This document shows positions 1,618 to 63,918 of a stretch of 64,000 nucleotides of DNA, one piece after another. The notes beneath the pieces are model-generated. The model made no database searches and was not told the DNA's origin. It was given only the letters and a program-made list of their open reading frames with translations. A program made the translations under genes and the position numbers. Every line of letters begins with the position of its first letter. The first letter of the stretch is position 1. Source of the DNA: Candidatus Omnitrophota bacterium (lineage in GTDB: Bacteria > Hinthialibacterota > Hinthialibacteria > Hinthialibacterales > Hinthialibacteraceae); the NCBI GenBank assembly GCA_003598175.1, contig QZKN01000050.1, forward strand, positions 57,334 to 121,333, read 5' to 3'.

Positions 1618-2283
1618 ATGAAAAAAGGGTTTACGTTGATTGAATTGTTGATTGTCGTGGCGATTATCGGGATACTTGCCGCGATTGCCGTTCCGAATTT
1701 TCTGAACGCGCAAACGAGAGCGAAGATCGCGCGCTGCTGGGCGGATATGAAATCCATGAACACCGCGGTTCAGCAGCTGCAATTGGATACGAACCACCTG
1801 CCTATCGACGGATGGGATGACGACACGGATGTAGGGCGTCAAATTCTAAAAGATATCTTCAACGGTGTGGGAGATTTTCCTGAAGCGGTACGCACGACGG
1901 TACACTATCTGGCCGTGCTGACCAGTCCGATATCCTACATGTCTTCGGTTCCGATCGATCCTTTTCTCAGCTATGGAAAATCGATGAGCGACTACGGATT
2001 TGGGAGCGGATACGGCACCTATATTTATGCGGATGTGGATCCACGTATTCCTGGGCGCAATCAGGGAATTCAATGCTTGAATCCCGGCGCCTTGGCGGAA
2101 GCTTATGGAATCAGACCTTTAAATGTCGGTGAATGGGCGTTTGTGGGCGTCGGTCCCGACGGCGTGGCGGGAATCGGCGCTGGTGGAACGCATGATTCGC
2201 GCGGTTTTCCATACAATTCTTCCAACGGTCTCGTGAGTTTGGGCGATATCGTCATGACCAGTGGGGGAATTGTCGGCCAGTAA
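1618..2283 (+). CDS. prepilin-type N-terminal cleavage/methylation domain protein (pseudopilin-like)
   Basis: N-terminus MKKGFTLIELLIVVAIIGILAAIAVPNF is the classic type IV pilin/pseudopilin leader plus hydrophobic helix. GGGAGG RBS lies 6 nt upstream of ATG 1618. ORF-track start 1597 judged an N-terminal over-extension. Confidence 0.8.
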   Translation: MKKGFTLIELLIVVAIIGILAAIAVPNFLNAQTRAKIARCWADMKSMNTAVQQLQLDTNHLPIDGWDDDTDVGRQILKDIFNGVGDFPEAVRTTVHYLAVLTSPISYMSSVPIDPFLSYGKSMSDYGFGSGYGTYIYADVDPRIPGRNQGIQCLNPGALAEAYGIRPLNVGEWAFVGVGPDGVAGIGAGGTHDSRGFPYNSSNGLVSLGDIVMTSGGIVGQ

Positions 2284-3348: not shown

Positions 3349-3504
3349 GATGATCACCTTTTATAAGAAAATTACGCGGGTAGAGCAGGCGTTCCCGCCT
3401 GCGCTGTTCGTACAAGCGAGGACGCTTGCTTTACCCACGGATGAACGAGCGCCGGTTATTTTCATCGTTCGATGTGACCAATTGGTCATTCCGGTTTCTA
3501 TGAA

Positions 3505-4680
3505 TTATAGCACGATCCGGGCGTCGTCCATCAATTTTCCCAGCTGCTCCATGCGATGGGCGAATGTATGATTGCGGGTGATTTGCCGACTGGCATGTGC
3601 AATCCATTCTTGCCGGGCGGATTCGTCACCGAGGTAATGGCGAGCGGCTTTGGCCAGCTCCTGCGGAGAGGAAAAGGAGGGAGACCACGGAAACGCGCTC
3701 AGATCGAATCGGTTTTCAGGGTCGTCGGCGTTCCAATCCTTATCATGGTCGCGGATGTGAGTGGACAAGAGGAAGCCGTTCTCACGCGGCACAAGAAAGT
3801 CGCGTTGTGTAGGCGCATCGAAACCTTGTAAACTGCGAAGGTTGATGTTGATCGACGCTGAACAAATCAAGTGCGGGTATTGATCGAACGGATCGAGCGG
3901 ACCGTGAAAACAAGGCGCGAGTGAGGTGGAACGGATTTGCGGCCGCCAGGCTTCATTTCCGAAAAGATGCAAATGAAGTGGAGCCAGCGGTTCCAGAAAT
4001 CGGAGGCGAGAGAGCCGATTGGACTCGGCGTAAAGATAATAAGCCAATTGGCCGCTCAAGTGAATTCGTTGAGACGGTGCAAAAGGGCGTCGATGCAGCA
4101 ATTCTTCAAAACCAAGCGCCGGATTTAAAAGTTTTTGGGCGATTATTTCGTCAAGATATGTCGCCATCGCGTGGTTCAGATGACGGCGCATATCCGATGG
4201 AATCATGGTGGCGCCGACGTAAGCGATGGGAATTTGATAGTCGTTTCGTTTTTCGCCAATCATCGAGATGGGGGCGGCAACCGGCAGAAAAAACGTATAC
4301 ACCGCGCCGCGCGCCTTCGCGCCGCGCGCAAAGGCGGGATCGGCAACCAGCACGACTTCATCGGCGGAAAATCGTTCCGCTCCCATGAAGAACGGATCGT
4401 CGAAAATCCATACCCACGTCCTACAGGGCATCGATTGCATGCCGATTTGACGATAAAAGTGAGACGCCGGATGATTGGCTAGCAGGATTCCATCCGGTTG
4501 AAACTTCAGGATGTCCTCTCGCAGGCGTCGCGTATGATCGGGATCATCGATTGGCAGAGGGAAAAGCCGCACTTCTTTTCCGTTGGCCTTCAATCCTTCC
4601 GCCGCGCCTCGCAGAATTGCTCGCGCGCCGTAAGAACGAGGATCGTCAAAGAGCCAGAATCGTTTGATGGTGGACCACAT
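3505..4680 (-). CDS. CgeB-like / DUF3880-type glycosyltransferase-associated protein
   Basis: About 390 aa with a GT-B-like C-terminal region. ORF-track start is a TTG placed directly after the upstream stop, so the start was moved to the internal ATG (MWSTIKRF). Family assignment is by overall resemblance only. Confidence 0.4.
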   Translation of the reverse strand: MWSTIKRFWLFDDPRSYGARAILRGAAEGLKANGKEVRLFPLPIDDPDHTRRLREDILKFQPDGILLANHPASHFYRQIGMQSMPCRTWVWIFDDPFFMGAERFSADEVVLVADPAFARGAKARGAVYTFFLPVAAPISMIGEKRNDYQIPIAYVGATMIPSDMRRHLNHAMATYLDEIIAQKLLNPALGFEELLHRRPFAPSQRIHLSGQLAYYLYAESNRLSRLRFLEPLAPLHLHLFGNEAWRPQIRSTSLAPCFHGPLDPFDQYPHLICSASININLRSLQGFDAPTQRDFLVPRENGFLLSTHIRDHDKDWNADDPENRFDLSAFPWSPSFSSPQELAKAARHYLGDESARQEWIAHASRQITRNHTFAHRMEQLGKLMDDARIVL

Positions 4681-4721
4681 TCCCTTTTGAAGACGGACCG
4701 TTGCATTCCCTCTCGATCTCG

Positions 4722-13541: not shown

Positions 13542-13805
13542 TTACAACTCCATTTCCAATATTTCTTGTTTCATTTTTTCCAATGGGATTCTTTTGCCTG
13601 CCATAAATTCCTTTCGAGATTGTTGGATAATGTTCATGAATTCATGATTAGTGCTCAATGACAGGGATTCTTCATCCATTTCTTTTAAAGAGATAATCGC
13701 AGCAATGGGTTTATGGTGAGATGTCAGAATAATCATATCCTGATCAATCTCATCGGCGACTTCTGACAAGGATTGCTTGGCCGTGGAAAGTTCAATGGTT
13801 TTCAT
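13542..13805 (-). CDS. Phd/YefM family type II antitoxin
   Basis: MKTIELSTAKQSLSEVADEIDQD-MIILTSHHKPIAAIISLKEMDE fits the Phd/YefM fold. 4-nt overlap with the upstream RelE-like ORF. Confidence 0.7.
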   Translation of the reverse strand: MKTIELSTAKQSLSEVADEIDQDMIILTSHHKPIAAIISLKEMDEESLSLSTNHEFMNIIQQSRKEFMAGKRIPLEKMKQEILEMEL

Positions 13806-14101
13806 ATGGTTATCTCTTTTCCTGCAATGAATAATTTATTGCCTTCTTTCATACCGACCGCCAATATTCTCACTACATTCGGCTCTTCAATGGGAACATC
13901 GTAAAAGACACGTAGATTCTGAATTCGTAATTCCCAGGGCGCAATCGGATTGGGACGAAGGGGTTTCCTGTTTCGGGTTTCAACAAGCGGTTCATGCAAC
14001 AGTTATTTTTCGATTGATTCGAGAATTACGACTCGTTGAAAGACAGACAATTTCTTCAATTGCATTTTCACGGATTCAGCAAATTCAATGTTGTATGCCA
14101 T
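13802..14101 (-). pseudogene. RelE/ParE family toxin interrupted by an in-frame TAA
   Basis: ATG at 14101..14099 encodes MAYNIEFAESVKMQLKKLSVFQRVVILESIEK. TAA at 14005..14003 interrupts it. The same frame continues LLHEPLVETRNRKPLRPNPIAPWELRIQNLRVFYDVPIEEPNVVRILAVGMKEGNKLF. Together about 99 aa with canonical RelE/ParE N- and C-terminal motifs. Confidence 0.65.
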
Positions 14102-21435: not shown

Positions 21436-21502
21436 TTTAAATACGCATTGAACCAGTCGAATTTTGTTATTTCATAGGTAAGAACTATCCGTAATCCATG
21501 AC

Positions 21503-21580
21503 GCGCCGGCAAAAAGTCGGATTCAATTTTGGAACCGGTACATATTGTAGTATCAATCAACAATCTGCCACTATATATAT
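21503..21580. repeat. MITE/REP-like intergenic repeat, copy A (5' half only)
   Basis: atgacgcgccggcaaaaagtcggatt...attgtagtatcaatcaacaatctgccactatatat shares about 85-90% identity with 32617..32700 and 63792..63872. Confidence 0.7.
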
Positions 21581-32114: not shown

Positions 32115-32333
32115 ATGGAAACATCGTCCTTGCAACGGGCTATCGATACGGTCGAAGCCTTGTCTTGTGAAGATCAGGAGATACTGTTTGAATTGATCAA
32201 GAAACGCCGAGTTGAGCAGCGTCGAAGCGAAATTGCCTTGAATGCCAAGAAAACTTTGCTGGCTCTTCATGAGGGGCGAGCGAGAATCGGCGCGATTGAT
32301 GACCTCAAAAAAGATCTTTTAGATGAATCATGA
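32115..32333 (+). CDS. type II antitoxin (partner of YafQ/RelE-like toxin)
   Basis: 72-aa protein immediately upstream of the toxin with a 4-nt overlap. GAGGTG RBS. Confidence 0.55.
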   Translation: METSSLQRAIDTVEALSCEDQEILFELIKKRRVEQRRSEIALNAKKTLLALHEGRARIGAIDDLKKDLLDES

Positions 32334-32614
32334 GAAAACTGGTTTGGGGAAATAGTTTTCGGCGTGAACTCAAACGCCTGATACACGATCATCCACACTT
32401 GTCGAATAAAGTTTTTTCTGTTTTGGAAAAACTATTGGTTAATCCTTATAATCCCTCCTTAAAAACACATAAACTAAGCGGAAAATTGGAAGGATTGTGG
32501 TCCTGTTGGGTCGAATACGATTGCCGGATTGTGTTTACTTTTTCAAACAATCCCACGACAAATGAAGATTTAATTGTTTTGATTGATATAGGCAAGCATG
32601 AAGATGTGTATTAA
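32330..32614 (+). CDS. YafQ/RelE-family mRNA interferase toxin
   Basis: LKTHKLSGKLEGLWSCWVEYDCRIVFTF...DLIVLIDIGKHEDVY matches the YafQ/RelE C-terminal catalytic region. Confidence 0.7.
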   Translation: MRKLVWGNSFRRELKRLIHDHPHLSNKVFSVLEKLLVNPYNPSLKTHKLSGKLEGLWSCWVEYDCRIVFTFSNNPTTNEDLIVLIDIGKHEDVY

Positions 32615-32616
32615 TG

Positions 32617-32745
32617 ACGCACCGACAAAAAGTCGGATTATATATAGAATCGGCACATATTGTAGTATCAATCAACAATCTGCCACTATATATTGTGCAG
32701 ACAGGATGTCCGCACCACAATTTTCGACTTTTTTTACCAGGGCAT
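32617..32745. repeat. MITE/REP-like intergenic repeat, copy B (full length, ~129 bp)
   Basis: Imperfect terminal inverted repeats gacaaaaagtcgg / cgactttttttac. Internal hairpin acatattgt-agtatcaatca-acaatctg. Followed at 32757..32782 by a caagggcag...ctgcccttg hairpin. Confidence 0.7.
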
Positions 32746-32809
32746 CATTAAAGAATTGTGCGGCAAGGGCAGAGTCGTTTCTGCCCTTGCTTTGGCAGCC
32801 TTATCATTT

Positions 32810-46701: not shown

Positions 46702-46908
46702 ATGATGGAAAATTTGTTGAATGAAAAACAGGTTGGCGAAAAAATCGGTGTTTCTCAAAGAACGCTGCAACAGTGGCGGTTGTGTGGACGCGGTCCAAAA
46801 TTTGCAAGAATTTCCGGGCGGTGCGTAAGATATTTGCGGATTCCGGCGCCGATTCACGATGGCGCGTCATTTCAGACGGGTGGCAAGGGCAAGCGAAGCA
46901 GCCCTTGA
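46702..46908 (+). CDS. AlpA/excisionase-like helix-turn-helix DNA-binding protein
   Basis: LLNEKQVGEKIGVSQRTLQQWR...GRGPKFARISGRCVRY matches the AlpA/Xis MerR-like HTH pattern. AAAGGAG RBS. A 13-bp palindrome ttgcgtaacgcaa lies about 20 bp upstream of the ATG. Confidence 0.6.
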   Translation: MMENLLNEKQVGEKIGVSQRTLQQWRLCGRGPKFARISGRCVRYLRIPAPIHDGASFQTGGKGKRSSP

Positions 46909-47149
46909 AGGATCAATAAAAATAATAGAAATTATCTCACGAGAGAATTCCGTGTTTTATATCGAAGCAGGTGACCGTCGAGAAGGTTTAATTGATAGAA
47001 AGCCCTATCCGGAATTTGAAGCCTTCGCGACTCTGAAAACCAGCGAGGAGTTCGAATCCATTCCGAACGATCGATATTGCATCGAAGGGAATTTTGGCGC
47101 GTACTTTCCGCCGATACCATTGAAGCGAGAGGGGAAACGGCGTCGATGA
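46859..47149 (+). CDS. hypothetical protein encoded largely within direct-repeat copy A
   Basis: The 96-aa ORF overlaps the AlpA-like gene by 50 nt. A degenerate, stop-containing homolog lies in repeat copy B (47688..47819). Confidence 0.3.
   Translation: MARHFRRVARASEAALEGSIKIIEIISRENSVFYIEAGDRREGLIDRKPYPEFEAFATLKTSEEFESIPNDRYCIEGNFGAYFPPIPLKREGKRRR
46875..47105. repeat. ~230-bp direct repeat, copy A (partner 47656..47880), about 70-80% identical
   Basis: gacgggtggcaagggcaagcgaagcagcccttga...atagaaattat...gagagaattccgtgtt aligns with gacggatggcatgggtaagcgaaacaacccttga...atagaaattat...gagagaattccgtgtt. Confidence 0.7.
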
Positions 47150-47212: not shown

Positions 47213-47428
47213 ATGAAATTTACAGCAATAATTGAACGCGAAGGTGAAGGATACGTATCGCTCTGTCCGGAGTTGGATATCGCAAGTCAAGGGAATAGCG
47301 TCGAACAGGCCAGAGACAATCTTCGTGAAGCTCTGGAACTTTTTTTCGAGACCGCATCACCCGAAGAAGTCAAAGAGCGACTTCATGATGAGATCTTTGT
47401 CACCCAACTTGAGGTGCTATATGGGTAA
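47213..47428 (+). CDS. hicB: HicB family antitoxin
   Basis: MKFTAIIEREGEGYVSLCPELDIASQGNSVEQARDNLREALELFFE matches HicB/UPF0150. GAGGTAA RBS. Confidence 0.8.
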   Translation: MKFTAIIEREGEGYVSLCPELDIASQGNSVEQARDNLREALELFFETASPEEVKERLHDEIFVTQLEVLYG

Positions 47429-47642
47429 ATTGCGTATCCTTTCCGGAAAAGAGGTATGCTCCATCCTAAAAAATCATGGTTTTGAGGAAATTCGCCAACG
47501 CGGGAGTCACGTTGTCATGCAGAAGAAATTATCGCAAGGCACGATAACGGTTCCTGTTCCGGACCATGATGAAATTCGAATGGGAACACTGCAATCCATA
47601 ATCCGGCAGTCCGGATTGCCTCGAAGTGAATTTGAATCATAA
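47421..47642 (+). CDS. hicA: HicA family mRNA interferase toxin
   Basis: LKNHGFEEIRQRGSHVVMQK...TVPVPDHDEIRMGTLQSIIRQSGL matches HicA/YcfA. 8-nt overlap with hicB. Confidence 0.8.
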   Translation: MGKLRILSGKEVCSILKNHGFEEIRQRGSHVVMQKKLSQGTITVPVPDHDEIRMGTLQSIIRQSGLPRSEFES

Positions 47643-47655
47643 CTCCTTGGCATCT

Positions 47656-47880
47656 GACGGATGGCATGGGTAAGCGAAACAACCCTTGAGAAATCTATGC
47701 AAATCATAGAAATTATTTTGCGAGAGAATTCCGTGTTGCCTATCAAAGCCGAAGACGGAAGAGAAGGCTTATTAGACGTCAACCCCCTATCTGGAATCCG
47801 AAACTATCGCGCCGCTGAAGAACGGTGATGAGTTCGAGCGAATTTATAATGGAACCTATTTTTCAAATCGAGTTTACCTT
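47656..47880. repeat. ~230-bp direct repeat, copy B (degenerate)
   Basis: See copy A. Its internal ORF MQIIEIILRENSVLPIKAEDGREGLLD... is terminated early relative to copy A. Confidence 0.7.
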
Positions 47881-48011
47881 TTGGGGAGGGAGATTCCCAT
47901 CCCGGATTTGCGGGGAAACGGTGTTTTTGTATATACAGAGGGCTTTTACGGCGTTATGATAGGGAGTGATTGTCCGGACGTTTCAGTTTGAGGAGAGTGG
48001 AGGAACAAACC

Positions 48012-49346
48012 ATGTATGATCAAGACGGAGTTTCCCGGCGAGGTTTTTTGAAGACGGTTTCCGGCGGTTTTTTGGCGGCCGGTTCGCTTCCGCTGTTGAT
48101 TCCCGCCGGCGCCATCGGGCGGGAAGGGAAGACGGCGGCCAATGATCGCATTCATATCGGCTGCATCGGCGTGGGGCCGCAGGGGACGCATGACATGCGT
48201 CAAATTTTGAAACACGACGTTGCGCGGGTCATCGCGTTGAGCGACGTGAAGAGCAACGTGCTGGAGGAAAAGCGGCGTTTGGTGAATGAATTTTATGGCG
48301 ACGAGGACTGCGTCGGGTATCACGATTTTCGCGAATTGGTTGCGCGGGAGGATATCGACGGTTGTCTGGTGGCGACGACGGATCATTGGCACGTGTTGGC
48401 CTCTTTGGCGGCGGTGCGGGCAGGGAAGGACGTGTATATGGAGAAGCCGATGGGGTTGACGCTGGAGCAGGATCAGGCCATGCGGCAAGCGGTGCACGAG
48501 CATCAGCGTATTTTTCAATTCGGCACGCAACAGCGGTCGGATCCGGAGTTCCGTCAGGCTTGTGAACTGGTTCGGAATGGCAAAATCGGCGAGTTGAAAA
48601 CCATCAACGTGTGGTCGCCCGGCAGTTCTTCCGGCGGGCCGACCGAGCGCGCGCCGGTTCCGCCGTGGCTGGACTACGAAATGTGGCTGGGGCCCGCGCC
48701 TTATACACCATATACAACGGATCGTTGTGAGAATGCGTGGTGGTGGTTTATTTCCGATTATGCGTTGGGATTCATTGCCGGCTGGGGAATCCATCCCATC
48801 GATATCGCGTTGTGGGGGGCGGAAGACAAGTTTGCCGGTCCGTGGGAAGTGGAAGGGAAAGGGTGGTTTCCGAGCGAAGGCGTGTGCGACACCGCGATGA
48901 ATTGGGACGTGAAAATCAGACTGGGGAGCGGTGTGGTCATCGATTTTCGCGGGGATCCCTATCCGGACGAATGGAAGCAGCGTTATGAGGACGATTCCAG
49001 CCACGGCACCGCTTTCGAAGGCAGCGAAGGATGGATCAGCGTGCGGCGCGGCAAGATCAACGCGCATCCGAAGAGTATACTGGAGACGAAGCTGGGGCCG
49101 AACGATACGCCGCTGTATTACAGCGAGCATCATGCGGGGAATTTTCTGGATTGTATTCGCAGCCGTAAGGAAACGGTGTGCCCGGTGGATGCGGCGGTGC
49201 GAGGGGATACGCTGTGCCACATCAGCGATATTGCCATTCGATTGCAGCGGAAACTGGTTTTCGATCCGGAGACGGAGACGTTTGTCGGGGACGAGGACGC
49301 GAATCGGAAACTTTCGCGTCCGATGCGCGCGCCCTGGCATTTGTGA
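48012..49346 (+). CDS. Gfo/Idh/MocA family oxidoreductase with twin-arginine (Tat) signal
   Basis: SRRGFLKTVSGGFLAAGSL Tat motif. IGCIGVGPQG Rossmann motif. EKPMGLTLEQ. GGAGGA RBS before ATG 48012. Confidence 0.85.
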   Translation: MYDQDGVSRRGFLKTVSGGFLAAGSLPLLIPAGAIGREGKTAANDRIHIGCIGVGPQGTHDMRQILKHDVARVIALSDVKSNVLEEKRRLVNEFYGDEDCVGYHDFRELVAREDIDGCLVATTDHWHVLASLAAVRAGKDVYMEKPMGLTLEQDQAMRQAVHEHQRIFQFGTQQRSDPEFRQACELVRNGKIGELKTINVWSPGSSSGGPTERAPVPPWLDYEMWLGPAPYTPYTTDRCENAWWWFISDYALGFIAGWGIHPIDIALWGAEDKFAGPWEVEGKGWFPSEGVCDTAMNWDVKIRLGSGVVIDFRGDPYPDEWKQRYEDDSSHGTAFEGSEGWISVRRGKINAHPKSILETKLGPNDTPLYYSEHHAGNFLDCIRSRKETVCPVDAAVRGDTLCHISDIAIRLQRKLVFDPETETFVGDEDANRKLSRPMRAPWHL

Positions 49347-49421
49347 TTTTTTGTCAGAAAATTGATATGAAGAGTGATCGTGTGCTGACAGGATGTCTGC
49401 GTTACAATCGAGGAGACAGTA

Positions 49422-50117
49422 TTACAATTCCGGATCGACGCCCAGGGCGCGAAGTTTTGCCGCCAGTTTTTCCTTGATTTTTCGTTCCTGTTCGGCGTAT
49501 ATTCGTTGCTCAAAGGCGGTTGGATACATGACGCCTTTCCGGTCGCACCAGCGCAGCCAGAGGGCCGGGTATTGTTCGTAGTCGCCTTCCCACAGGGTCA
49601 ATCCCAATTCCACTTTGTCCAGCCAGTGAGTTTGTTTACGATGGTATTTTTCATCCTGCAGTTCATACACCAGCAGAACGGTATCGAGAATCTCATGATC
49701 GGGATCGAAGATGACGTAGTAGGGAACGCCGATTTCCTGATAAATGCGGAATTTCCGGTCGTTTTCTTCGCCTTCCCGATTGGAGACGACTTCCACGACC
49801 ACATCGGGCGGTTTGCCGAAGACCCAGGTGAAGTAGACGCGATTTTTTTTGGCGCGTTTGTCTTTGGCCGGTTTCACATCGAGGCTCAGCAGCATGTCGG
49901 GAACCAGGGGAGGTTCGTGCGGGTGATAGTATAAACCCACGTTGGTGCAGGCCAGAAACTGCCGGGGGCAGTTCCAGGAGGAATATAACGACTCTACCAA
50001 CAATCGATGTTGTTTGTCCGCAAACACGCTGTCCACCGGTGTATCGTCCTCTGTGATGAATTGTTCGTAATCGATTTCGTCCAAACGGGGAAACGACGCC
50101 ATTGTAATGGAGTTCAT
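49422..50117 (-). CDS. Uma2 family (DUF820) restriction-endonuclease-fold protein
   Basis: PDVVVEVVSNREGEENDRKFRIYQEIGVPYYVIFDPD is the PD-(D/E)xK-like Uma2 core. AGGAAGCAG RBS. Confidence 0.7.
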   Translation of the reverse strand: MNSITMASFPRLDEIDYEQFITEDDTPVDSVFADKQHRLLVESLYSSWNCPRQFLACTNVGLYYHPHEPPLVPDMLLSLDVKPAKDKRAKKNRVYFTWVFGKPPDVVVEVVSNREGEENDRKFRIYQEIGVPYYVIFDPDHEILDTVLLVYELQDEKYHRKQTHWLDKVELGLTLWEGDYEQYPALWLRWCDRKGVMYPTAFEQRIYAEQERKIKEKLAAKLRALGVDPEL

Positions 50118-50530
50118 GGTTTTCTGCTTCCTGTCGATTCAAGGTCTTGAGAGAAAGTATACAGCGAAATGAGGAGAACGGGAAAGGGAGAATTTTTTAT
50201 TTGGCTCTTATTTCTTATAGGTTTCCAAATTATCTTCTCCGGGAATCATGAATTTATGGCTTGATCTTCTTTTTTCCTCTCTGTGGGGGCTATCGTCTAT
50301 TATTTTTTTGATATTATTCGGATTGACTTGTTCCAACGCTGCGCTATACTTTCCATGCGAATAGAAAAGAAGCGGTGATCAAAAAGTCTGATTTCAATTC
50401 AAATCGGTTGCATGTGTCAGCGCTTGACTTCATTCCCTACCAACATTGTGCATCCTGAGTGTTTGCGTCTCATTGATTGATTTTTTTGTGGCATCAGATA
50501 TTATTAATCGAGCCAGGAGGAGAACACCGT

Positions 50531-51442: not shown

Positions 51443-51862
51443 TTATATCTTGTCGAGATTATCGTCGGTTGATAAAACTCCTTTTTGTTCCAAATAGATT
51501 TTTATCCTTTTGGAAAAATTTCTGGCGTCTCGAACCATCACTTCCGCATCCTCTTTTTCGATTTCCGATGAGACAATATAATCGGCAATATCTCTTTGAA
51601 TCTGTTCATGAGCCAATATTTCAGCCCATTCCTTCTCGATTTCACCTTTTTGAACAGGTAATTGACCAAAAAGTCGTTTTGCAGAAGCATGTCTTTTTAC
51701 ATCAATGCCATGAACCAAAAGAGCTGCTTTGGTCGCGTGCAAAACAGCATAATAGGAACGTGAAATGGAATCTTCGAATTATTCCAATGATAAAAGTGCT
51801 TCAGCGGATTTCAATGATTTTATAGAACGATTCCACTCGTCCACTATCGCCTCTTGATTCAT
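51443..51862 (-). pseudogene. HEPN domain toxin interrupted by an in-frame TAA
   Basis: ATG 51862..51860 encodes MNQEAIVDEWNRSIKSLKSAEALLSLE. TAA at 51781..51779 interrupts it. The same frame continues FEDSISRSYYAVLHATKAALLVHGIDVKRH...RDARNFSKRI. ATGA overlap with the upstream MNT gene. Confidence 0.6.
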
Positions 51863-52194
51863 GCGAATGAAATCCCTTCTTCTTGAATCCGATCACAAAA
51901 CACCGATTTACGGAGTTTAAGACGTTCCCACTCTTTGATCGTAAAAACAAAAATGGAGGGAACCACATTCGTTCCGATCGAAGGCCGAATCCCGATACTG
52001 GCGACTTGCTTTTTTAGTTTACGATCACCTTCGCGAATCAAAATTAGCAAATCCAAATCCGAATCACGTCTCGAATCCCCTCTTGCCTTTGAGCCATAAA
52101 GAAGAATATTTTCGACTAAATCCGGAAATCGATCATATAAATTCTCTCGATAGGAATTTAACCATTTTTTTTCTTCTTCATTCAACATTACCAT
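51859..52194 (-). CDS. minimal nucleotidyltransferase (MNT) family antitoxin
   Basis: LYGSKARGDSRRDSDLDLLIL carries the GS-x9-DxD nucleotidyltransferase motif. Confidence 0.75.
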   Translation of the reverse strand: MVMLNEEEKKWLNSYRENLYDRFPDLVENILLYGSKARGDSRRDSDLDLLILIREGDRKLKKQVASIGIRPSIGTNVVPSIFVFTIKEWERLKLRKSVFCDRIQEEGISFA

Positions 52195-53369: not shown

Positions 53370-53673
53370 GGATTCCTCGCGTATTTATTTGATTTTTCGA
53401 CTCGAATAAGTTGATTTATTTTACACCAAAAATTTGGGGAGTTTAGGACATCAGCCTCCTTTCCCTCCGGTCCGTGTTTTCACTCCCTACAATCCGGAAG
53501 ATGTGTGGAGCCGGTATACGAATCTCTTGTATCACGCGATTGTTGATTGAGGGAAAAATTTTGTTGGCAAGGTTCCAATTTCAATAACAACAATTCCATG
53601 ATATTATAAAGGTATATCATAAAAATCATACAGCTAATGTGGAGATTGTCGGGTGGAATGAATATCGATGGAA

Positions 53674-53706
53674 AAGGTGGGTTTCGCTTTGCTCAACCCA
53701 CCCTAC
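53674..53706. repeat. 33-bp hairpin-containing repeat aaggtgggtttcgctttgctcaacccaccctac, copy 1 (identical copy at 55755..55787)
   Basis: Exact 33/33 match. Stem ggtgggtt / aacccacc. Confidence 0.85.
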
Positions 53707-53715
53707 ATAGATAAA

Positions 53716-53883
53716 ATGAAAGTCAGTGAAATAATCAAAATTCTAAAAGAAGACGGCTGGTATCTTGATCGTACGCGGGGAAGCCATCGGCAATTCAAAC
53801 ACCCGATCAAACGGGGGAAGGTGACCGTTTCGGGTAAAGAATCGGACGATATGCCCATAGGATTGAAGTTCAGCGTTTTTTAA
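53716..53883 (+). CDS. hicA: HicA family toxin
   Basis: MKVSEIIKILKEDGWYLDRTRGSHRQFKHP is the canonical HicA N-terminus. The ORF-track start 53668 reads through the 33-bp repeat; true start is uncertain (53668 or 53716). Confidence 0.7.
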   Translation: MKVSEIIKILKEDGWYLDRTRGSHRQFKHPIKRGKVTVSGKESDDMPIGLKFSVF

Positions 53884-53912
53884 CAAGCGCAAATCGATAG
53901 GAGAAAATTACA

Positions 53913-54140
53913 ATGAAATATGCGGTTGTGATTGAAAAAGCGGAAAATAATTACGGGGCCTACGTTCCCGATCTTCCCGGATGCGTGGCGACAGCCGGCG
54001 CCGTCGAGGAAACCCTTCACATGATTAAAGAAGCCATCGAATTTCACATTGAAGGGTTGAAACTGGACGGCGAGCCAATCCCCAAACCATCCGCGATCTG
54101 TGATTACGTCGAAACCGAAGACATTTCTCACATCGCCTGA
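53913..54140 (+). CDS. hicB: HicB family antitoxin
   Basis: MKYAVVIEKAENNYGAYVPDLPGCVATAGAVEETLHMIKEAIEFHIEG. TAGGAGAAA RBS. Confidence 0.85.
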   Translation: MKYAVVIEKAENNYGAYVPDLPGCVATAGAVEETLHMIKEAIEFHIEGLKLDGEPIPKPSAICDYVETEDISHIA

Positions 54141-55595: not shown

Positions 55596-55754
55596 TCCAT
55601 TCTCCTTCCTCAGGGCATCGACGGGGACGCACTCAGATTATAAGGGATTCCATGATTCTTCGTCATCGAGGTTATACGAATGTTTTGAGAGATTGTAGAT
55701 TGTTGGGTCGGGTGTATGCAATGCATCCTGTTTGTTTTTGAAATGGCAATCGTA

Positions 55755-55787
55755 AAGGTGGGTTTCGCTTTGCTCAACCCACCCTAC
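55755..55787. repeat. 33-bp hairpin-containing repeat, copy 2
   Basis: Identical to 53674..53706. Confidence 0.85.
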
Positions 55788-63762: not shown

Positions 63763-63791
63763 TATTAGCGGCGGCAACCGTCCGTATGCAA

Positions 63792-63918
63792 AAATGCGCC
63801 AGCAAAAAGTCGGATTACATTTTGGAACCGGCACAGATTGTCGTATCAATCAACAATCTGTCACTATATATTGTGCAGACAGGATGTCCGCACCACAAAT
63901 TTTGACTTTTTGCCGGGG
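63792..63918. repeat. MITE/REP-like intergenic repeat, copy C (full length)
   Basis: Terminal inverted repeats gcaaaaagtcgg / tgactttttgcc. Internal hairpin acagattgt-cgtatcaatca-acaatctgt. About 88% identical to copy B. Confidence 0.7.

Follow-up and report, generated by a model that had tools for sequence, protein, structure and literature searches.

The literature documents degraded toxin-antitoxin (TA) pairs well, and with them toxin pseudogenes and antitoxins left as orphans (PMC7192599; PMC7354431). They include a parE pseudogene lying beside parD in Caulobacter crescentus and a frameshifted yacB in Shigella, as well as the thousands of orphan antitoxins of Klebsiella, many of which sit in degraded TA contexts (PMC7354431, PMC7192599). 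The locus described here resembles such degraded type II TA loci in that a point lesion appears to disable the toxin while the antitoxin stays intact in its original context, leaving the pair recognisable. It differs from them in that three families are affected within 40 kb, by one TAA each and without other damage, and in its host, an uncultured Omnitrophota bacterium.

Each of the three affected pairs has described counterparts. The first compares with RelE/ParE toxins that are paired with Phd/YefM antitoxins: by profile its toxin probably falls in the same superfamily, it is a 99-aa protein, and a Phd-type gene adjoins and overlaps it. It differs in that the interrupted RelE scores slightly under the cut-offs of the curated RelE/ParE models, in that the toxin gene comes first, as is usual in its subfamily, and in that this copy is interrupted at all. 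The second is built like the pairs of a minimal nucleotidyltransferase (MNT) and a HEPN-domain protein (AF0298, HI0073/HI0074 and type VII HepT/MntA), with an MNT gene followed by an overlapping HEPN-domain gene. In contrast to HepT-type toxins, the HEPN protein studied here has R-x4-Y in place of Rx4-6H and its gene is interrupted, and the MNT protein scores 27 bits against the cut-off of 60 for MntA. The third is a HicA/HicB type II system, with clear matches to both the HicA and the HicB profile, the toxin gene first, and overlapping genes; unlike other such systems, its HicA stops 10 codons early, a TAA replacing a conserved Lys/Arg.

Our analysis covered a 64-kb stretch of DNA (the window), which is ordinary chromosome, with genes for RecQ, RNase D, deoxyhypusine synthase, a response regulator, sugar-active enzymes and similar proteins. 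It holds five TA modules, and in three of these the toxin is cut by a premature TAA. A sequence-only reading of the window had described the stops in RelE and HEPN, each lying in a single frame with the rest of its toxin, and we confirm its coordinates for both; the truncation of HicA is a third case, which that reading did not contain. The modules and their stops are as follows.

13542..13805, minus strand: Phd/YefM-type antitoxin gene, 87 aa, intact; its ATG overlaps the RelE stop as ATGA.
13802..14101, minus strand: RelE/ParE-family toxin gene, 99 codons, cut at codon 33; probably now a pseudogene.
14003..14005, minus strand: in-frame TAA at RelE codon 33, probably derived from CAA (Gln) by a C-to-T change.
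32115..32614, plus strand: YafQ-type TA module, a 72-aa upstream gene and a 94-aa YafQ/RelE-type toxin; apparently intact.
47213..47642, plus strand: HicB-like/HicA module; apparently intact, with Pfam HicA_toxin matched over positions 1-58 of 58.
51443..51862, minus strand: HEPN-domain gene (PF05168/UPF0332 type), 139 codons, cut at codon 28; probably now a pseudogene.
51779..51781, minus strand: in-frame TAA at HEPN codon 28, probably derived from TTA (Leu) by a T-to-A change.
51859..52194, minus strand: minimal nucleotidyltransferase (MNT) gene, 111 aa, intact; its stop overlaps the HEPN ATG as ATGA.
53716..53916, plus strand: HicA toxin gene, by its frame originally 66 codons, cut at codon 56 by a TAA at 53881..53883.
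53913..54140, plus strand: HicB antitoxin gene, 75 aa, intact; Pfam HicB_lk_antitox, 57.5 bits.

The RelE-like frame runs on the minus strand from an ATG at 14101..14099 through 32 codons to the TAA at 14005..14003, and on through another 66 codons to a TGA at 13804..13802. The open reading frames on the two sides of the stop give products of 32 aa and 65 aa, the latter with a TTG start, and both lie in the same frame. When the stop was masked and the two pieces were joined, Pfam ParE_toxin aligned to residues 5-83, crossing the TAA, with 21.4 bits against a cut-off of 23, and NCBIfam RelE_StbE gave 19.1 against 27.9. The family is large and highly uniform: we found 1351 homologs, many of them with precomputed PF05016 matches and RelE/ParE names. 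Among the 119 examined, 102 are exactly 99 aa long, and the nearest ones show 70-75% identity. The profile built from this family matches Rv2866 RelE2 and YoeB with E = 1.5e-3 to 6e-3, and the nearest solved structures by sequence are those of M. tuberculosis RelE2 (Rv2866, PDB 3G5O) and YoeB (PDB 7V5Y). Gln occupies the stop column in 102 of the 119 homologs, and in the two whose DNA was read the codon is CAA (L087) or CAG (L085). Outside its TAA, RelE retains all invariant alignment columns and is free of frameshifts and further stops.

The adjoining Phd gene (13805..13542) is intact, as is MNT (52194..51859), which agrees with what the sequence-only reading had claimed for the two partner genes; each overlaps its toxin gene by ATGA. 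The Phd product matches Pfam PhdYeFM_antitox with 32.6 bits against a cut-off of 29.8 and is 46-57% identical to the products of genes downstream of homologous RelE genes at two loci. One of these loci is on a cyanobacterium-like 242-kb contig and the other in another metagenome-assembled genome, and in both an overlapping gene for an 83-84-aa Phd homolog lies downstream. The toxin-first order with its ATGA overlap had been taken for unusual, a view that we do not share: since homologous RelE genes likewise precede an overlapping Phd-like gene, this order appears to be the norm of the RelE family, as judged from the two loci checked. The assignment to RelE/ParE comes with an adjoining cognate antitoxin gene and with pairing and order that are the same in homologs; an uninterrupted frame over the full domain is absent, owing to the TAA at codon 33.

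The HEPN frame, also on the minus strand, starts with an ATG at 51862..51860 and continues for 27 codons to the TAA at 51781..51779 and for 111 more codons to a TAA at 51445..51443. The two pieces, of 27 aa and 99 aa (the latter within the 111 sense codons from stop to stop), are in one frame, and Pfam HEPN aligned to residues 10-121 of the joined protein, again crossing the TAA, with 62.1 bits against a cut-off of 22. HEPN has fewer homologs than RelE; they are 116-154 aa long and uninterrupted, the best intact one being 50% identical, and in 23 of them the stop column holds Leu (17), Phe (3), Cys (2) or Trp (1). All invariant alignment columns outside the TAA are retained here too, without a frameshift or further stop. 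Since the profiles cross the masked stops, RelE and HEPN each form one single domain and not two genes. Homologs of both run uninterrupted across the stop positions, and none is naturally split, contrary to the possibility named in the sequence-only reading that the N-terminal peptides and the downstream parts might normally be separate genes. At both stops the homologs carry a sense codon, mostly for Gln in RelE and for Leu in HEPN.

The HEPN profile match, together with an adjacent minimal nucleotidyltransferase gene and an ATGA overlap, places this module among the MNT-HEPN pairs. The MNT protein matches Pfam NTP_transf_2 with 32.6 bits against a cut-off of 21, and scores 27.2 bits in the MntA equivalog model, under its cut-off of 60. 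The Rx4-6H motif of HEPN RNases is absent from HEPN, which has R90-x4-Y95 and no His. Because of this R-x4-Y in place of Rx4-6H, and because MNT stays under the MntA cut-off, HEPN is called a toxin here by analogy; circumstantially, it is also HEPN rather than its MNT partner that has been lost. The closest solved relative of HEPN is AF0298 (PDB 2HSB). Across the HEPN family, the R-x4-Y motif (R90, A93, D94, Y95) is conserved along with a Ser-His pair at residues 57-58.

HicA, the third of the interrupted toxins, matches Pfam HicA_toxin with 59.8 bits against a cut-off of 27, and the match covers only positions 2-48 of the 58 in the profile. Its homologs are 61-65 aa long. Among 20 that were aligned, the stop column holds Lys in 14, Arg in 5 and Gln in 1, so that a change from AAA (Lys56) to TAA, A-to-T, is likely. 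The ten in-frame codons past the TAA encode QAQIDRRKLQ, which aligns with the C-termini of homologs and includes an invariant Gln57 and a nearly invariant Ala. A TGA closes this extension and overlaps the start codon of hicB (ATGA). A 46-nt repeat occurs in two copies that are 89% identical (53661..53706 and 55742..55787) and contains a hairpin, GGTGGGTT...AACCCACC; the copy just upstream of the true HicA start inflates the automatic HicA call to 71 aa. Short GC-rich hairpin repeats similar to this one lie at 3413 and 59336 and at 32761 and 35360.

For comparison, the two remaining modules of the window appear to be undamaged. The 94-aa toxin at 32.1 kb matches positions 2-86 of the 88 in Pfam YafQ_toxin. 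A copy of an intergenic repeat family of about 96 nt (21483..21578, 32598..32693 and 63776..63871; 64-84% identical to the reference copy) directly follows this toxin gene. The HicB-like/HicA module is flanked by a 124-nt direct repeat (46872..46995 and 47653..47776, 77% identical), both copies of which are overlain by spurious open reading frames that give similar peptides; this module could be a small cassette that was acquired, or could lie within a repeated element. Among about 30 other window genes with full-length Pfam coverage we found no truncation. The neighbouring Uma2 and oxidoreductase genes (47946..50138), which are adjacent and share a frame, were considered as one broken gene and set aside, having separate starts and domains. 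To the right of the window, about 9.8 kb of new sequence (L088) contains no further TA module. Uma2-family (putative restriction-endonuclease-like) genes are found both in the window (49422..50117, minus strand) and in L088 (16307..16864), about 17 kb apart, each adjoining a GFO/IDH/MocA oxidoreductase gene, and immediately past the right end of the window come genes for a Fic-domain protein and a type I methylase (HsdM).

The lesions appear to be reproduced in a second assembly of the same organism. Copies of the source contig at NCBI (JAGUZP010000123.1, GCA_020060745.1) and IMG (3300038436, Ga0394679_026397) are identical to the window. The second assembly, also at NCBI and labelled Candidatus Omnitrophota bacterium, has a 133,102-bp contig with RJP31xxx proteins, and we compared it with the window through its protein records. 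Its Phd (RJP31371.1), MNT (RJP31405.1) and HicB (RJP31407.1) proteins are identical to those of the window. Its HicA is 55 aa long and ends at the same residue (RJP31429.1), and its HEPN was called only from just past the stop, with a rare start (RJP31404.1, 107 aa). No RelE protein is recorded in it between the consecutive RJP31371.1 (Phd) and RJP31372.1 (the next gene). These protein records point indirectly to the lesions a second time, in assemblies that may share one sample. Exact-pattern scans with the flanks of the RelE stop in a metagenome collection and with those of the HEPN stop in a genome collection returned no match, the source contig included, and a literature search with the assembly accessions was likewise without result.

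We asked how TAA is otherwise used in the window and how often such a pattern would arise by chance. As the sequence-only reading had it, TAA is an ordinary stop elsewhere: it ends 28 of the 46 window open reading frames that reach 100 aa or more, the gene that stops at 2281..2283 among them, and is thus the commonest genuine stop. Since it terminates most window genes, we discarded a global reassignment of TAA. Selenocysteine and pyrrolysine are encoded by TGA and TAG, and their decoding was discarded on this ground. About 2.6% of the window codons belong to toxin genes, and two random nonsense hits would both fall in toxins with P of about 7e-4; with three broken genes, all among five toxins and set against about 30 to 50 other genes, P is 4e-4 to 1.5e-3. 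This restriction of truncations to toxins argues against random error and points toward selection acting on toxins. In RelE, HEPN and HicA alike, a single base separates the stop from the sense codon that predominates in homologs. The genes are AT-rich (37-45% GC), and about half of the single-base routes to a stop in them yield TAA, so three TAAs are expected by chance with P = 0.12; we attach no significance to all three stops being TAA. A single mutational signature, such as deamination, was dropped as well: the changes differ (C-to-T, T-to-A and A-to-T), and three different substitutions do not imply any single mutational process.

We also looked for the HEPN locus in related species. Searching species-representative genomes with MNT as the query, we found a single syntenic locus, L005 (contig CAZXSQ010000107.1), which shares with the window an intact MNT, 72-73% identical, and the 3-keto-disaccharide hydrolase gene that flanks it. 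Between the two species, MNT has a dN/dS of about 0.15 at a dS of about 1, and purifying selection has thus acted on the MNT partner over a long period. At L005 the DNA similarity covers the first 24 codons of HEPN and then ends abruptly; the remainder of HEPN is gone, and unrelated sequence lies beyond. From these alignments, HEPN seems to have been lost twice, independently in the two species and by two different lesions. A constrained partner and two different lesions are the expected signature of a decay that begins with the toxin and argue against a stop that is conserved for a purpose. The parallel loss is also a circumstantial sign that HEPN of the PF05168 type, though it lacks the canonical RNase motif, is the harmful partner of MNT. 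In the L005 region 4084..4700, the unrelated DNA past the 24-codon stub contains a minus-strand open reading frame (122 aa) whose product is hydrophobic over a stretch close to the N-terminus, and at about 4513..4692 a HicB-like one without an adjoining HicA, another orphan antitoxin.

Our combined findings make it probable that the three toxin genes were inactivated by recent, genuine nonsense mutations while their antitoxins were retained. Such inactivation was among the three explanations put forward in the sequence-only reading, next to assembly error and bypass of the stops; it is favoured by the homologs, the restriction to toxins and the second assembly, and the other two have lost ground. 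One base change in each gene would have produced the TAA, from CAA (Gln33) in RelE, TTA (Leu28) in HEPN and AAA (Lys56) in HicA. Translation would then stop early, giving 32 aa of RelE and 27 aa of HEPN, both without nearly the entire domain, and a HicA minus its last 10 residues, conserved ones included. Losing the toxin would be harmless or beneficial to the cell, and losing the antitoxin beside a working toxin would be lethal. Because the former would be tolerated and the latter lethal for as long as the toxin works, the decay of a TA pair would be expected to begin with the toxin, leaving an intact orphan antitoxin that may persist as a regulator or an anti-addiction factor. The truncated products would presumably be non-toxic and the orphan antitoxins still useful. 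All of the antitoxin or partner genes (Phd, MNT and HicB) are full length. The broken copies have their stops at columns that are sense codons in full-length homologs, next to partners that are intact and, for MNT, constrained, and in these respects they belong with toxin pseudogenes. RelE and HEPN being otherwise undamaged, the mutations, if that is what they are, would have to be young; frames that are clean apart from one stop would fit a very recent mutation and, equally, continued translation. Three toxins with exactly one lesion each, all of the same type, make a slightly odd snapshot of steady decay, which counts against this explanation.

The same observations were weighed for other readings. 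The stops might be artefacts of sequencing or assembly, or minority alleles carried into the consensus, in toxins that are really intact. The source is indeed a metagenome-assembled genome, and the two assemblies might share reads. However, consensus errors strike at random and 97% of the codons lie outside toxins, yet all three hits are in toxins. In addition, the second assembly, at 133,102 bp against the 132,294 bp of the source contig, has the same short products of HicA and HEPN and lacks a RelE protein, and the NCBI and IMG copies do not depart from the window. We thus regard an artefact as very unlikely. A role for the fragments themselves is improbable, too: the 55-aa HicA could be active, or the C-terminal pieces of RelE (65 aa) and HEPN (99-107 aa) could act as attenuated toxins or as decoys that bind the antitoxin. 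HicA is missing merely 10 of its 66 residues and, being only that much shorter, may retain some activity, and start codons follow soon after the RelE and HEPN stops, where gene callers did call the downstream pieces. Yet those downstream starts, as read from the sequence, lack anything resembling a Shine-Dalgarno sequence, a third of the domain, at the N-terminus, is missing from the RelE piece and the first helix from the HEPN piece, the residues lost from HicA include the invariant Gln and the nearly invariant Ala, and no homolog is naturally split or equally short.

That the stops are bypassed is a more elaborate proposal, in which low-level UAA readthrough, or a suppressor tRNA of the host or of a phage, would give a little full-length toxin, or give it conditionally, with TAA as a throttle or trigger. 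Several features agree with it: all three interrupted genes keep their conserved residues and a clean frame past the stop, the HicA extension keeps its ATGA overlap with hicB, and the same type of lesion recurs in three of five toxins. Moreover, C is the next base after two of the three stops. In E. coli a stop followed by C is a comparatively weak terminator, whereas TAA-T is a strong one, and the HEPN stop is of the latter kind. In-frame stops inside otherwise intact coding sequences are also what programmed readthrough and stop-recoding phages have in common with these genes. In contrast to those systems, the stops here are not conserved, none of the 119 RelE, 23 HEPN and 20 HicA homologs having a stop at the corresponding column, and the related species carries a different lesion at L005, as plain decay predicts. 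Neither is there a stimulatory structure or a shared motif: the 86 nt from each stop fold like shuffled sequence (z = 0.42, -0.35 and 0.72), and the contexts (AAA TAA CTG, GAA TAA TTC and TTT TAA CAA) have nothing in common. Neither tRNA genes, and with them a suppressor tRNA, nor Rfam elements were found in the 64-kb window, TAA is its main terminator, and three TAAs out of three are compatible with chance. Bypass is accordingly an improbable explanation, to which we give little weight. Its most specific form is that the TAAs are kept on purpose, holding the toxins silent until UAA is decoded by the suppressor tRNA of a recoding phage or by stress-induced readthrough. This conditional switch is left with a very slight chance by the otherwise undamaged state of the genes and by the specific targeting of toxins. 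If it were true, full-length toxin would be made solely on infection, and the modules would constitute a suppressor-sensing abortive-infection switch, a new kind of phage sensor.

Inactivation by nonsense mutation, the reading that we prefer, is an instance of a known phenomenon and a fresh one, mildly notable for its density, with three families hit within 40 kb, and for the parallel loss of HEPN. Its value is mainly corrective: the stops point neither to a changed genetic code nor to recoding. For annotation, it would mean that the three toxin genes are to be recorded as pseudogenes rather than as short hypothetical proteins. For the biology of TA systems, the locus would offer a natural snapshot of their decay, in which a single nonsense hit removes the toxin first and the antitoxin is kept.
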